DNA from: Escherichia phage vB_EcoS_IME347
Reading direction: 5' to 3' (one strand)
Sequence record: MH051918
DNA length: 50,048 nucleotides
Both the position numbers and the translations under genes were made by a program. This document shows, in pieces, positions 1 through 50,048 of this stretch. Within the stretch, counting starts at the first letter, position 1; each line of letters begins with the position of its first letter. Below the pieces are notes generated by a model. That model was not told the origin of the DNA. It was given only the letters and a program-made list of their open reading frames with translations, and did not search any database.

Positions 1-18
1 CCTACCGACTTTTCCGTT

Positions 19-36
19 TTTAGCAAAAAGTGCTAT
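19..36 (-). promoter_or_regulatory. box copy without a canonical -10 partner inside the window
   Basis: The plus strand reads TTTAGCAAAAAGTGCTAT, identical to copy 49862-49879. The expected -10 position would fall left of base 1. Confidence 0.4.
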
Positions 37-37
37 C

Positions 38-139
38 GTGACAAGATTACATTGACTCGCTGTATATCACTGTCTACAATTTCCCGGATTTGTCGGCGTG
101 ACAAAATTACACCTCGCGCCCCTGAGAGTGAGATTACAT
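38..139 (+). repeat. three direct GTGACAARATTACAY repeats
   Basis: GTGACAAGATTACAT at 38-52, GTGACAAAATTACAC at 98-112, GTGAGATTACAT at 128-139. Start-to-start spacings are 60 and 30 nt. Confidence 0.6.
52..80 (+). promoter_or_regulatory. sigma70-like promoter TTGACT-17-TACAAT
   Basis: TTGACT at 52-57, a 17-nt spacer, TACAAT at 75-80. Flanked by GTGACAARATTACAY repeats. About 365 nt upstream of the first ORF. Confidence 0.55.
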
Positions 140-4355: not shown

Positions 4356-4654
4356 ACAACTTGCACGAACTGAAGATTTTCCCGCGCCACTTCTACGGCG
4401 TGAAGATGGGGCAGAAGAAAGCAGAATTCAGGGTTGACGATCGCGGATTCAAAACTGGCGACACGCTCCGCCTTCGCGAATGGCACGAGGGCGACTTTAC
4501 CGGGCGGGAAATCAGCGTTGTGGTGACTGACGTAACCGACGTGACCGAGTTCATCAATCGGGCGAACGCCGAACTGTACAACGGGAACCGCTTCGTAATG
4601 CTGTCGTTCTTCGTGGTTCACGCGAGCCTTTGCGATATCCCGTACATCCGATAG
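4352..4654 (+). CDS. ASCH/DUF3850-like protein, 100 aa
   Basis: HELKIFPRHFYGVKMGQKKAEFRVDDRGFKTGDTLRLREW matches my memory of the DUF3850/ASCH N-terminal pattern. ATGA overlap. Its stop is the TAG of box 4651-4668. Confidence 0.65.
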   Translation: MNNLHELKIFPRHFYGVKMGQKKAEFRVDDRGFKTGDTLRLREWHEGDFTGREISVVVTDVTDVTEFINRANAELYNGNRFVMLSFFVVHASLCDIPYIR

Positions 4655-4694
4655 CACGAATTGCTAAAACAATAATCCGGGGCTATGCCATAAT
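4651..4694 (+). promoter_or_regulatory. box/-10 promoter cassette
   Basis: Box ATAGCACGAATTGCTAAA. Inverted repeat GGGGCTAT/ATAGCCCC. 22 nt spacing to TGcCATAAT (hexamer 4689-4694). Confidence 0.65.
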
Positions 4695-6590: not shown

Positions 6591-7174
6591 TGAGCAAAGT
6601 AATCATTCTCAACGCGCCGCCAGCATGTGGCAAAGACACGATAGGTTCAATCATCGCGGATATGAATCAGATTTATGGCGTTCGCATGTTGAGCTTCAAA
6701 GCGCCGATGTTCGAGATCGCCCGAGCTATCCTCGGTGATGCGAACTTTGATTATTTCATGTTCCTTTATAACGATCGGCTCCATAAGGAAAAGCCCGATT
6801 CCATTCTGAACGGTAAAAGCCCGCGCGAGTTCATGATCTGGATTAGCGAGGCAATCATTAAGCCAGAATTCGGCAATGATTATTTCGGGCGTCGAATGGT
6901 TGAGGCTGTCAAGTCAGGCACTGCCCCGGCGATTATCACGGACGGCGGATTCACTGAAGAGACAATCGCACTAATTGAAGCTGGTATTCAGGTTCACGTC
7001 TGCCGACTGCACCGCGACGGATTCACGTTTGAAGGCGACTCGCGAAACTATCTTCACCTGCCTGTGGGCTGGCAAGGCGTAAACGGCTACACCGAAGAAG
7101 ATTTCCAGTTACGTGACGGTGATCCTGATTACACTGCCAGCGTGATTACCGGGAAATACCTGCGTCACTTCTAA
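6590..7174 (+). CDS. P-loop kinase, dNMP-kinase-like, 194 aa
   Basis: Walker A in NAPPACGKDT. The overall pattern (GKDT...ITDGGFTEE...RDGD) recalls T4 gp1-type dNMP kinases. TAATG coupling to the HAD gene. Confidence 0.6.
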   Translation: MSKVIILNAPPACGKDTIGSIIADMNQIYGVRMLSFKAPMFEIARAILGDANFDYFMFLYNDRLHKEKPDSILNGKSPREFMIWISEAIIKPEFGNDYFGRRMVEAVKSGTAPAIITDGGFTEETIALIEAGIQVHVCRLHRDGFTFEGDSRNYLHLPVGWQGVNGYTEEDFQLRDGDPDYTASVITGKYLRHF

Positions 7175-7217
7175 TAGCACGAATTGCTAAAAACTCGGCG
7201 GGGTAAGCTGTTATAGT
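7174..7217 (+). promoter_or_regulatory. box/-10 promoter cassette
   Basis: Box ATAGCACGAATTGCTAAA. Inverted repeat GGGGTAA/TTACCCC. 22 nt spacing to TGtTATAGT (hexamer 7212-7217). Confidence 0.65.
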
Positions 7218-9580: not shown

Positions 9581-9598
9581 ATAGCACGAAATGTTAAA
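9581..9598 (+). promoter_or_regulatory. box copy in the terS leader
   Basis: ATAGCACGAAATGTTAAA lies between TGaTAAAAT (9574-9582) and the GGAGGA RBS. No -10 lies 22 nt downstream. Confidence 0.45.
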
Positions 9599-9614: not shown

Positions 9615-10139
9615 ATGGAACGGAAAGAGAAAGCGCCCGTAGTGCAGGGCGGTAATTTTAAGGAGCTATACCGAAAGAAATTCGGAACGATTATCGGAAA
9701 ATCAGCCAGCTTCACGCCTGAACAGGTTTTCGATCTGGCGGTGAAGTATTTCACGTGGGCGGAGGACAACGCAATTAAAGCCTCTGAGACAGCGAGTTTT
9801 CAGGGTGAAGTGGAGGAGTCACTCGTTCATAAACCGCGCGTGTTTACTCACAACGGCTTCCGCCTGTTCCTTGGGATCAGCGAGTCGGCGGTCACGAAGT
9901 GGCGGCGACAGGAAGATTTCGCAGAGGTGATGGAGTTCGTTGATACGGTAATCAGCGAGCAGAAATTCCAGCTTGCAGCTAACGGCGTGATTAATGCCTC
10001 GTTCATCGGGAAAGACTTGGGGATCGACAAGCCAGCGACAATCAACATCGACAACCAAGCGAACGCCACGGCGGGCGCGATCGCCTCCACTGAGTCCGCG
10101 ATGCGCGATGCGGTAGAGAGTATTCTGGATAACCTTTAA
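9615..10139 (+). CDS. terS: terminase small subunit (putative), 174 aa
   Basis: Track ORF 9591.. trimmed to ATG 9615 (GGAGGA 6 nt upstream). Sits immediately upstream of terL. Size and N-terminal region are typical of phage small terminases. Confidence 0.6.
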   Translation: MERKEKAPVVQGGNFKELYRKKFGTIIGKSASFTPEQVFDLAVKYFTWAEDNAIKASETASFQGEVEESLVHKPRVFTHNGFRLFLGISESAVTKWRRQEDFAEVMEFVDTVISEQKFQLAANGVINASFIGKDLGIDKPATINIDNQANATAGAIASTESAMRDAVESILDNL

Positions 10140-10172: not shown

Positions 10173-11744
10173 ATGTTAGTGTGGGAAGAACTGGACGCAA
10201 CGCAAAAGCTTGCGATCAAGAAAATGAGCGAGGCAAGTTTCGAAAAGATGATTCGGATCTGGTTTCAGCTTATTCAGGCGCAGCAATTTAAACCTAACTG
10301 GCATCACCTTTACCTTTGTCACGAGGTGGAGGAAATCATCGCCGGGCGGCGCGGGAATACGATCTTCAACGTAACGCCGGGTTCCGGTAAAACCGAAGTG
10401 TTTTCGATTCACCTCCCTGTGTACGCGATGCTTCGCGTGAACAAGATCCGAAACCTGAACGTGTCGTTTGCCGATAGTCTCGTCAAGCGTAACAGCAAGC
10501 GAGTGCGAGAAATCATCGCATCGAAAGAGTTCCAAGAGTTATGGCCTTGCGGGTTCGCCACGTCCAAAGATGATGAAATTCAGGTTCTCAATCAGGCTGG
10601 CAAGGTGTGGTTCGAACTGATATCCAAGGCGGCTGGCGGACAAATTACGGGTTCTCGTGGTGGCTACATGAGCGACGGATTCTCCGGGATGGTGATGCTT
10701 GACGATATCGACAAGCCGGACGATATGTTTTCCAAGGTCAAGCGAGAGCGTACACACACGCTCCTGAAGAATACAATCCGAAGCCGAAGGATGCACAACG
10801 AAACGCCGATTATCGCCATACAGCAGCGCCTACACGCGCAGGATTCGACGTGGTTCATGATGTCGGGCGGAATGGGGATAGACTTCGAACAGATCTCAAT
10901 CCCGGCTCTCGTTACTGAGGAATACGGGCAATCGCTTCCTGAATGGTTACGCCCTCACTTCGAGAAGGATGTTCTCTCGTCCGAGTATGTGATGATAGAC
11001 GGAGTGAAGCATTACAGCTTCTGGCCTGACAAGGAATCTGTTCACGATCTGATTGCATTGCGAGAGGCAGACCAGTACACGTTCGACTCGCAGTACCAGC
11101 AGCGCCCGATCGCGCTTGGTGGCTCCGTGTTTAACTCGGAGTGGTGGACGTACTACGGAAACAGCCTTGAGGCTGACGAACCAGATCCCGGCAAGTTTGA
11201 CTATCGTTTCATTACGGCTGATACCGCTCAGAAAACAGGTGAGCTTAATGACTACACTGTATTCTGTCTTTGGGGTAAGAAAAACGATAAGGTGTACTTT
11301 ATCGACGGGGTTCGCGGAAAGTGGAAAGCGCCGGAAATGGAGACTCAGTTTAAATCATTCGTTAGCACGGCATGGCGTCACAATAAGTCGATGGGCGTAC
11401 TCAGAAAAATCTACGTGGAGGATAAAGCGAGCGGGACGGGCTTGATTCAGAATCTGGAGAAGAAAACTCCCGTCCCGATCACGCCATTGCAGCGAAATAA
11501 GGATAAGGTTACTCGCGCGATGGATGCGCAGCCAGTAATCAAGGCCGGGCGCGTTGTTCTGCCTGAATCGCATCCTATGCTTTCCGAAATCATCACGGAG
11601 CATAGCGCATTCACATACGACGACACGCACCCTCACGACGATATTGTCGATAACTTCATGGATGCGGCAAACATCGAACTTCTGACGATAGACGATCCTA
11701 TCGAACGAATGAAACGCCTTGCGGGAATGGCAAAGCGCAAGTAA
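10173..11744 (+). CDS. terL: terminase large subunit, 523 aa
   Basis: Walker A in VTPGSGKTE, Walker B-like MVMLDDID, and a C-terminal nuclease-type acidic region. Sits upstream of the portal gene. Confidence 0.9.
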   Translation: MLVWEELDATQKLAIKKMSEASFEKMIRIWFQLIQAQQFKPNWHHLYLCHEVEEIIAGRRGNTIFNVTPGSGKTEVFSIHLPVYAMLRVNKIRNLNVSFADSLVKRNSKRVREIIASKEFQELWPCGFATSKDDEIQVLNQAGKVWFELISKAAGGQITGSRGGYMSDGFSGMVMLDDIDKPDDMFSKVKRERTHTLLKNTIRSRRMHNETPIIAIQQRLHAQDSTWFMMSGGMGIDFEQISIPALVTEEYGQSLPEWLRPHFEKDVLSSEYVMIDGVKHYSFWPDKESVHDLIALREADQYTFDSQYQQRPIALGGSVFNSEWWTYYGNSLEADEPDPGKFDYRFITADTAQKTGELNDYTVFCLWGKKNDKVYFIDGVRGKWKAPEMETQFKSFVSTAWRHNKSMGVLRKIYVEDKASGTGLIQNLEKKTPVPITPLQRNKDKVTRAMDAQPVIKAGRVVLPESHPMLSEIITEHSAFTYDDTHPHDDIVDNFMDAANIELLTIDDPIERMKRLAGMAKRK

Positions 11745-16092: not shown

Positions 16093-16120
16093 TTGACGCT
16101 TTAACAAAAAGTGCTATCAT
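16093..16120 (+). promoter_or_regulatory. sigma70-like promoter TTGACG-16-TGcTATCAT (capsid gene)
   Basis: TTGACG at 16093-16098 and TATCAT at 16115-16120. The predicted +1 (~16127) lies inside the 5' arm of terminator 16121-16148. Confidence 0.55.
16100..16117 (-). promoter_or_regulatory. inverted box copy forming the spacer and TGn of the capsid promoter
   Basis: The plus strand reads TTTAACAAAAAGTGCTAT, embedded in TTGACG-16-TATCAT. Confidence 0.5.
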
Positions 16121-19907: not shown

Positions 19908-19925
19908 TTTAACAAAAAGTGCTAT
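19908..19925 (-). promoter_or_regulatory. inverted box copy upstream of the tail chaperone gene
   Basis: The plus strand reads TTTAACAAAAAGTGCTAT followed by CAC, giving TGcTATCAC. Lies 24 nt before ATG 19949. Confidence 0.45.
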
Positions 19926-36839: not shown

Positions 36840-36873
36840 AAAAAACGCGTAACAGGAGTTTACCCGCTACGCG
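36840..36873 (-). terminator. terminator-like hairpin enclosing the primase -10
   Basis: Read on the minus strand: CGCGTA, a 16-nt loop, TACGCG, then T6 and ATTGGAG. Confidence 0.45.
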
Positions 36874-47640: not shown

Positions 47641-47684
47641 ATAATATCAAATCACCCCGAGGTTGTTTTAGCAATTCGTGCTAT
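47641..47684 (-). promoter_or_regulatory. box/-10 promoter cassette
   Basis: Read on the minus strand: ATAGCACGAATTGCTAAA. Inverted repeat GGGGTGA/TCACCCC. 22 nt spacing to TGaTATTAT. Confidence 0.65.
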
Positions 47685-48832: not shown

Positions 48833-48876
48833 ATTATGCCAAACTACCCCGATCGCGTTTTAACAAAAAGTGCTAT
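48833..48876 (-). promoter_or_regulatory. box/-10 promoter cassette
   Basis: Read on the minus strand: ATAGCACTTTTTGTTAAA. Inverted repeat GGGGTA/TACCCC. 22 nt spacing to TGgCATAAT. Confidence 0.65.
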
Positions 48877-49515: not shown

Positions 49516-49794
49516 TTAGATAGATTTCTTCGCAACCTTGTATGCTTCCTTGAAAGCCGGAACATCTTCGATTTCAATCCAGAAGCCGGAGCCATAACCA
49601 TCCTCATAGCAAGGGCACTGATCGCAATAGTCGCCCCAAGTTTTCTCAACGCCACCGATAGAAAACCCTGTGGACATTTCGCAAAGCGCTTCCTCTACAG
49701 CTTCGATCTTGTCGGCGTCGTTGTCCATGATTACAAAGTTCCACTTGCCGTTGTATTCAGTACCGAGTTTGATAGATTCGCGCTTGAGTTTCAT
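49516..49794 (-). CDS. hypothetical acidic small protein, 92 aa
   Basis: Track ORF with a GGAG RBS. Cassette 49836-49879 upstream. Its TAA abuts box 49498-49515. Confidence 0.75.
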   Translation of the reverse strand: MKLKRESIKLGTEYNGKWNFVIMDNDADKIEAVEEALCEMSTGFSIGGVEKTWGDYCDQCPCYEDGYGSGFWIEIEDVPAFKEAYKVAKKSI

Positions 49795-49835
49795 GAGTTG
49801 CTCCGTTGTTTTGTGTGCTTCGTTTCGATGAGTGT

Positions 49836-49879
49836 ATTATGCCAAACCAAGCCGATCGATGTTTAGCAAAAAGTGCTAT
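49836..49879 (-). promoter_or_regulatory. box/-10 promoter cassette
   Basis: Read on the minus strand: ATAGCACTTTTTGCTAAA. 22 nt spacing to TGgCATAAT. No clear inverted repeat. First leftward promoter of the right arm. Confidence 0.6.
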
Positions 49880-49894
49880 TCCTGAAATTGTCGA

Positions 49895-49925
49895 TTATTC
49901 CACCGATTCTGGAATAACTGGAATA
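49895..49925. repeat. inverted repeat TTATTCC-N9-GGAATAA plus direct CTGGAATA x2
   Basis: TTATTCC at 49895-49901 and GGAATAA at 49911-49917. A second GGAATA lies at 49920-49925. Confidence 0.5.
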
Positions 49926-49927
49926 CT

Positions 49928-50012
49928 TGATGATTACTCATGATTGCAAATGACAAGTTGTGATTATTGCGTGATGTGGAATGATTGCTGTGATTGTTGC
50001 TTGTAATGCAAT
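49928..50012 (+). repeat. phased TGAT(T/G) repeats
   Basis: TGATT or TGATG occurs near 49931, 49941, 49961, 49971, 49982 and 49991, mostly in steps of 10-11 nt. Followed by TGTAATGCAATGAATG. Confidence 0.5.
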
Positions 50013-50048
50013 GAATGTGGAGGGGAGATTATTATGATGCGCTCCTCG

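Follow-up and report, generated by a model that had tools for sequence, protein, structure and literature searches.

Where on its genome does a T1-like phage begin to package DNA, and what does its terminase recognize there? T1-like phages are widespread, are known as laboratory contaminants and as generalized transducers, and are candidates for therapy against Klebsiella, E. coli and Shigella; to our knowledge, no sequence has yet been established as their pac signal. The question arises at the right end of Escherichia phage vB_EcoS_IME347 (MH051918), whose complete 50,048-nt sequence is referred to here as the window. The field at 49880-50048 holds short TGATT-type repeats in regular steps next to a GGAATA palindrome, which an earlier sequence-only reading of this DNA had considered as a possible packaging site or origin.

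An intergenic hub opened at the record ends

By BLAST against phage records, IME347 is a T1-like member of the Drexlerviridae, subfamily Tunavirinae, whose nearest relatives, the Sertoctavirus phages SRT8, BrunoManser and IME-JL8, share only ~78% nucleotide identity with it. The window represents this genome in full, and its record ends fall within a divergent intergenic hub of 704 bp (49795-50048 plus 1-450). Its genes follow the T1 layout: early genes of small size read rightward from 451 and the two terminase genes, terS and terL, lie at 9.6-11.7 kb, followed by structural genes, replication genes and leftward small genes, the outermost of which ends the leftward cassette with its ATG at 49794 on the minus strand. 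BrunoManser, SRT8 and IME-JL8 carry ~713 bp of unannotated DNA between the leftward and rightward cassettes, and the hub aligns to all three with no break at the junction of 50048 and 1, except for a 9-nt insertion in IME347 just after it. Because the relatives' DNA is continuous across the junction, the right-end field and control region A on the other side form a single hub. The sequence-only reading had proposed this contiguity, and the uninterrupted alignment bears it out, at a measured size of 704 bp in place of the ~620 bp claimed. Its premise of a permuted headful genome is also supported, as the window is a permutation cut within the noncoding hub and a headful-type terminase is encoded. 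That the right end contains no ORF is correct for ORFs of at least 60 aa and incorrect below that length, since a 51-codon ORF spans the junction.

The small terminase TerS (9615-10139, plus strand) matches Pfam GP3_package (PF16677; E = 4e-12), the P22 gp3 family; its ORF is listed from 9591, and the ATG at 9615, which follows GGAGGA, is the likely start. The large terminase TerL (10173-11744, plus strand) matches Pfam Terminase_6C (E = 2e-15), and its relatives are annotated as terminase large subunit. The genome thus encodes the headful-type terminase pair expected of a headful pac phage. T1-like (Drexlerviridae) relatives are documented as pac packagers (PMC11447400, PMC7718038), and packaging of the T1/TLS type is headful with terminal redundancy (PMC11447400).

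Both arms of the hub carry early promoters. The leftward promoter PL, which drives the outermost leftward gene, was found by promoter scan as TAAACA-18-CATAAT with a TG; its extended -10 (TGGCATAAT) occupies 49836-49844 on the minus strand, and the -10 itself, at 49841-49836, lies exactly 20 nt past a copy of a 21-nt repeat. The rightward promoter PR (TTGACT-17-TACAAT; 52-80, plus strand) has 10 of 12 consensus matches. Hub copy 1 of the 21-nt repeat (ATAGCACTTTTTGCTAAA; 49862-49879, minus strand) is the upstream element of PL and is 89% identical to the Sertoctavirus relatives; copy 2 (19-36, minus strand) has the same orientation and lies ~16 nt upstream of the -35 of PR, with no -10 at the canonical distance of 20 nt. 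The two copies, overlooked in the sequence-only reading, are identical to each other and bracket the field. They match the Drexlerviridae repeat ATAGCACnnnTTGnTAAA and lie within 2 mismatches of ATAGCACNNNTTGCTAAA; this is the 21-nt intergenic repeat of the family, with the TLS consensus aaATAGCACnnnTTGnTAAAA, and its function is among the questions that the TLS paper leaves open (PMC11447400). Copy 2 occupies the same place in T1, LHE71, Sfin-1 and Sertoctavirus and is absent in Webervirus, TLS and SU57.

What this repeat does is suggested by its other occurrences. At up to 2 mismatches, the 18-nt core ATAGCACnnnTTGCTAAA has 30 copies in the window, for example at 969-986, 4651-4668 and 7174-7191, and on the minus strand at 47667-47684 and 48859-48876. 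Since 22 of the 30 are followed by a -10-like hexamer exactly 20 nt downstream, against a background of 1.4% per position, the repeat would seem to serve a class of phage promoters as their upstream element. The hexamer usually sits inside a 6-9-bp inverted repeat that varies in sequence among copies, and a conserved ATCGAAACGAA-type leader, a ribosome binding site and an ATG follow. The palindromic core TAGCA-N5-TGCTA, centred near -41.5, suggests the site of a dimeric activator. Two copies, at 16100-16117 and 19908-19925, have the motif on the minus strand, antisense to plus-strand structural genes, and the second of them has TACAGT at the canonical 20 nt and may be an antisense promoter. 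Another, at 9581-9598, abuts terS with no -10 at the usual distance, and the ATG at 9591 given by the ORF finder falls inside it. The 21-nt repeat is a bracketing neighbour of the array described below and is to be distinguished from the array itself.

The rightward arm holds further elements. Three operator-like copies of GTGACAAnATTACA / GTGAGATTACA lie near PR, at 38-51 (upstream of the -35), 98-111 (just past the start) and 128-138, and relatives carry GTCTAAATTAC and TAGACAAAAT variants at these sites. The AT-rich block TATGATATATATAATAATAATAGTTAAATTTTATCTTTTATATAC at 142-196 is 79-80% identical to Sertoctavirus, compared with 45-65% in most of the rest of the hub; conceivable roles for it are those of a pac element on the packaged side, of an unwinding element or of a promoter cluster. 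As to base composition, GATC is over-frequent genome-wide, with 284 sites against ~195 expected from length alone, and occurs once in the 704-bp hub, at 49854, outside the array, against ~4 expected.

A phased repeat array and its neighbours

The most regular element of the field is an array of TGATT/ATTGC units (49928-50016, plus strand), ~9 of them ~10.1 nt apart, which we regard as a candidate small-terminase recognition or wrapping array. TGAT starts at 49928, 49931, 49941, 49961, 49972, 49982 and 49991, with another at 50035, and degenerate units keep the register at 49951 (TGAC), 50002 (TGTA) and 50012 (TGAA), so that successive steps measure 10, 10, 10, 11, 10, 9, 11 and 10 nt, with a mean of ~10.1. 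The array is closed by a purine-rich G-block (GTGGAGGGGAG; 50017-50027, plus strand). A purine-rich block stands here in every lineage examined, as GAGAGGGGGG in T1, GGGAG in Webervirus, GTGGAGGGG in aaroes, GAGTAGTGAGTGAG in TLS and GAGTGAGTGAATG in SU57 and MSK.

Could such an array have arisen by chance in AT-rich noncoding sequence and be without function? In favour of this, each unit spans just 4-5 nt and none lies in a coding region. Against it stand the statistics: the 50-kb window has no denser TGAT cluster than this one, with seven in 70 nt, and the chain of seven TGA sites in 9-11-nt steps is unique, no chain elsewhere in the window exceeding three. In 300 dinucleotide-preserving shuffles of the whole window, both strands counted, the longest TGA chain had 4 units (7 observed) and the longest TGAT chain 3 (4 observed), and the observed chain length was attained in 0 of 300. 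The six TGAT(T/G) units at ~10-nt steps noticed at 49931-49995 in the sequence-only reading are therefore real and statistically unique. As the phasing is also kept across subfamilies and the array forms a local peak of conservation, we regard a chance origin as hardly credible.

This conservation was followed through the hubs of T1, LHE71, Sfin-1, the three Sertoctavirus phages, Jurek, IMGroot and F20 (Webervirus), aaroes (Hanrivervirus), TLS, and SU57 and MSK (Rtp-like). A 302-nt query spanning the junction matches 388 phage records, of which a single one lacks a name of Drexlerviridae type. In most hubs the elements come in the same order, with the 21-nt repeat by the leftward cassette followed by operator-like repeats, the TGATT/ATTGC array and the purine block. 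In T1, Sertoctavirus, Webervirus and TLS the phased array is found at this place in the hub; in the Rtp-like phages it is looser. Its chains count 9 units in TLS, 6 in the Webervirus phages Jurek and IMGroot (in Jurek at 136, 146, 157, 167 as TGAC, 177 and 187) and 5 in Sertoctavirus; T1-type chains have 3-4 units, with more units past a small palindrome, and aaroes and F20 have weak chains only. The phasing is retained although the bases between units differ among relatives. Within the hub, identity to Sertoctavirus reaches 86-88% in the array core (49928-49977), compared with 45-65% for most of the remainder, and the array is kept in TLS and Webervirus despite different flanking promoter-proximal modules.

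One of these modules is the operator-like GGAATA module (49877-49925), which lies at roughly -48 to -96 relative to the presumed start of transcription from PL. Its four copies are TATTCCT at 49877-49883, TATTCCA at 49896-49902, and TGGAATA at 49910-49916 and 49919-49925. The TTATTCC-N9-GGAATAA palindrome with a tandem repeat, noted previously, is confirmed as the pair TTATTCCA (49895-49902) and TGGAATAA (49910-49917), with 7 nt between them, plus a tandem CTGGAATA at 49909 and 49918. Because there are four copies in mixed orientation, the palindrome is more likely a protein site; as a DNA hairpin it scored z = -1.96, and we rejected that option. The module is found in T1, LHE71, Sfin-1, Sertoctavirus, Webervirus and aaroes, with the 12/7/2-nt spacing of its copies identical in T1 and the same in Webervirus and aaroes. 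TLS carries two copies of AGACCGATTGGTCT instead, and SU57 and MSK, which are Rtp-like, have no module there. Covariation of the module with the first leftward gene was considered and dismissed: that gene encodes DUF5417 in IME347 and Webervirus but not in T1 or Sertoctavirus, which also carry GGAATA. Judged by its distribution, GGAATA is a lineage-specific, exchangeable operator-like module, separate from the family-wide array. Array and palindrome had been treated as one feature in the sequence-only reading; they have to be parted, given that the array is family-wide and GGAATA is replaced in TLS and absent from the Rtp-like phages.

Genome ends and possible roles of the array

How, then, is the array placed relative to the ends of these genomes? 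In seven relatives from four lineages, the ends lie in the homologous array or within ~40 nt of it. They are of different kinds: the ends of the window and of the Webervirus records are deposited starts, those of SU57 and MSK are based on sequencing, and that of TLS was mapped by restriction. The T1 record starts within its array, between GATGTGATT and GTTGCATGG, at about window position 49966, and its positions 1-2800 are annotated as a repeat region. JMPW2 and FCWL1 start at the T1 position, probably by convention or homology, and since some records were probably opened in this way, the record ends cannot all count as independent. In TLS, the record opens at AGATTT, centrally within the 9-unit chain; there, a submolar pac-HindIII fragment was mapped, and the start was then refined by the resemblance of these 6 nt to the P22 pac (PMC11447400). 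For SU57, the start was chosen from PhageTerm and an abrupt change in coverage, with the pac itself "not identified", and the same paper places the pac of T1 and T1-like phages in the untranslated region between the small-ORF cassettes (PMC7718038). For MSK, PhageTerm gave a start at 36,862 (p = 1.6e-9) with forward packaging (PMC8421802). These two sequencing-based ends and the restriction-mapped TLS end agree within ~100 bp.

Their positions relative to the purine block are similar. The SU57 start lies 22 nt and the MSK peak 4 nt to the right of it; the ends of the Webervirus phages Sanco (USA), vB_1086 (China) and P11 (no country given) lie at most 10 nt apart, 28-38 nt to the right of the G-block; and the IME347 junction, 21 nt to the right of its own G-block, is homologous to the SU57, MSK and Webervirus ends. 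Four of the starts read CCWW (CCTACC in IME347, CCAATC in SU57, CCATGC in Sanco and CCATAC in MSK), and CC(A/T)(A/T) may be a preferred context for the terminase cut. On the right side of the window, 50028-50048 (plus strand) would be the pac cleavage zone, which runs on into 1-18 (plus strand; CCTACCGACTTTTCCGTT), the putative first packaged bases. The 9-nt insertion relative to Sertoctavirus (approximately CTACCGACT) falls within 1-18, directly after the window start and exactly at this inferred cut zone; it also puts copy 2 of the 21-nt repeat ~9-10 nt farther from the CATAAT at 50036-50031. A hairpin near the junction was discarded as a shared feature (z = -0.09 in IME347, not significant in Sertoctavirus); a 7-bp hairpin is present in T1 (ACCAGG-TTCG-CCTGGT core; z = -1.4), and LHE71 shows compensatory changes in it.

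From these positions, together with the conservation of the array, we consider it about an even chance that the field at 49880-50048 is the recognition (left) side of the pac region of a T1-like headful phage. The ~9 units, one per helical turn and all on the same face of the DNA, would be bound by an oligomeric TerS of the P22 gp3 family, and this binding would bend or wrap ~90 bp. Such a same-face geometry is expected for DNA around an oligomeric TerS, as in the SPP1 and SF6 TerS models. The complex would then set TerL to cut ~20-40 bp to the right, past the G-block and near the junction of 50048 and 1, and packaging would proceed rightward through region A, so that the linear order of the window would be that of the first headful. 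The rightward direction is inferred from the T1 repeat-region annotation and the MSK report.

The same array lies between two promoters, and a role in transcription has to be weighed against one in packaging. A regulator, or curvature due to the phased units themselves, could activate or silence the divergent PL and PR, with the pac located elsewhere, for example in the AT-rich block. Earlier authors, as cited in PMC8421802, tied the T1 pac to ATATA repeats, and the equivalent of these is the AT-rich block at 142-196, ~150-200 nt farther right than the array. The array lies ~100-190 bp upstream of PL and ~95-210 bp upstream of PR, is bracketed by two promoter-type 21-nt repeats and adjoins the operator-like GGAATA module, a position that fits a purely transcriptional function equally well. 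Such a function would leave unexplained why the genome ends of seven relatives from four lineages fall in or beside the array, and why the array is kept in TLS and Webervirus, where the promoter-proximal modules differ. We therefore see an exclusively transcriptional array as possible but rather unlikely; it is plausible that the transcriptional and packaging roles coexist. A more elaborate form of the packaging reading, which combines the two, strikes us as rather unlikely: TerS ring subunits would read the units one-to-one, with ~90 bp wrapped and the cut made immediately before CCWW ~20-40 bp past the purine block, and TerS loading late in infection would also silence early transcription, because the array lies between the two early promoters. 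If true, the array would be a combined packaging and transcription switch and the defining pac signal of the whole Drexlerviridae.

Phased repeats in the same orientation also recall the iterons of a replication origin, and the conserved AT-rich block at 142-196 (79-80% identical to Sertoctavirus), ~150 bp away, could serve as its unwinding element; for T1-like phages no origin is known, and the TLS paper found none (PMC11447400). Against this, boxes for DnaA (TTWTNCACA, at most 1 mismatch) are absent from 49795-50048; one occurs at 182-190, and the total in the window is below chance. No initiator gene is adjacent, and the GC skew tracks the direction of transcription only, its switch at the hub being explained by divergent transcription. 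The end-mapping data favour packaging. We thus regard an origin as improbable: of the two functions that had been suggested for the phased repeats, pac recognition is favoured by the ends located in or within ~40 nt of the array, and the origin lacks support from DnaA boxes or the skew. Even less probable, in our judgement, is that the field gives rise to a small protein or RNA, either from the 51-codon ORF (MMRSSPTDFSVFSKKCYRDK...; plus strand, from the ATG at 50034 across the junction to 141) or as a leftward transcript from copy 2 of the 21-nt repeat. The ORF does have a strong Shine-Dalgarno-like sequence in the G-block, 6 nt ahead of its ATG (GGAGGGGAG-N6-ATG), and its counterpart in Webervirus records is annotated as a 43-aa 'putative membrane protein'. 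The homologous frames differ in length and sequence, however, counting ~12 codons (T1), 24 (Sertoctavirus) and 43 (Webervirus), and in TLS the start codon is missing; the ORF also overlaps PR as well as copy 2 of the repeat, and the 10-nt period of the array is not a multiple of 3. For an RNA, Rfam returned no family at threshold in the whole window, and copy 2 has no canonical -10. The ORF is probably not a gene, and the purine block may belong to the pac region instead.

Comparison with characterized pac sites

The closest comparison is with T1 and TLS themselves, whose hubs are homologous to that of IME347 and have the same architecture, and whose reference genomes are opened inside the array. 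The ends differ in where they fall relative to the repeats: the T1 and TLS starts are central in their arrays, and the ends of SU57, MSK and Webervirus lie to the right of theirs. The literature on TLS assigned its pac by restriction mapping and the AGATTT resemblance to P22 (PMC11447400); the array as a pac signal is not described in the T1- and TLS-related papers searched, and no mention of TGATT together with a pac site was found in the literature searched. What is best supported as new, judging by the sequence comparison, is a family-wide candidate for a repeat-array pac region, and repeat-array pac regions are a kind already known.

Among these, the P1 pac serves as a precedent. Its seven TGATCA/G hexamers (HEX4 and HEX3) are accompanied by a cleavage site and an IHF site in ~100-160 bp of DNA, by which the terminase is directed to its first cut (PMC10028697). 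Both phages have multiple units with a TGAT core, and the arrays of T1 and TLS even contain TGATCA and TGATCG; the IME347 array differs from these in having no GATC. In P1, pac lies inside pacA, Dam methylation of each GATC is needed and an IHF site is present, whereas the IME347 array is intergenic and ~9.6 kb from terS. With no GATC in the array, no IHF consensus (WATCAANNNNTTR) in the hub and a position outside terS, the array is not of the strict P1 type, and the terminase families differ as well, that of IME347 being P22 gp3-like.

In its layout, the region is more reminiscent of the SPP1 pac (pacL-pacC-pacR), where TerS-bound, phased bent DNA on the non-packaged side is followed by the cut and then by the packaged side. 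The order array, G-block, cut and region A in IME347 would correspond to this by analogy. The two differ in that the SPP1 pac overlaps terS, its boxes are unrelated in sequence and TerS binding has been experimentally shown for SPP1.

An array beside mapped genome ends is a concrete and mutable candidate for the recognition site of the small terminase. It bears on how genomes of this family can be opened and compared consistently, and on the design of packaging-competent phagemids and of therapeutic phages deficient in transduction.

With P22, IME347 shares a homologous small terminase (GP3_package) and the headful mode. The P22 pac is one compact, asymmetric 22-bp site (GAAGATTTATCTGAAGTCGTTA) inside gene 3, in contrast to the long intergenic array of IME347. 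P22-pac-like sequences (AAGATTTATCTG, at most 3 mismatches) occur 47 times in the window against 45 expected by chance, with none in the field; one such 3-mismatch match within terS, at 9913-9924, is background, and a pac there would contradict the relatives' mapped ends. The comparison thereby bears on how small terminases of one family, the P22 gp3 type, could read either a compact site or a long array.
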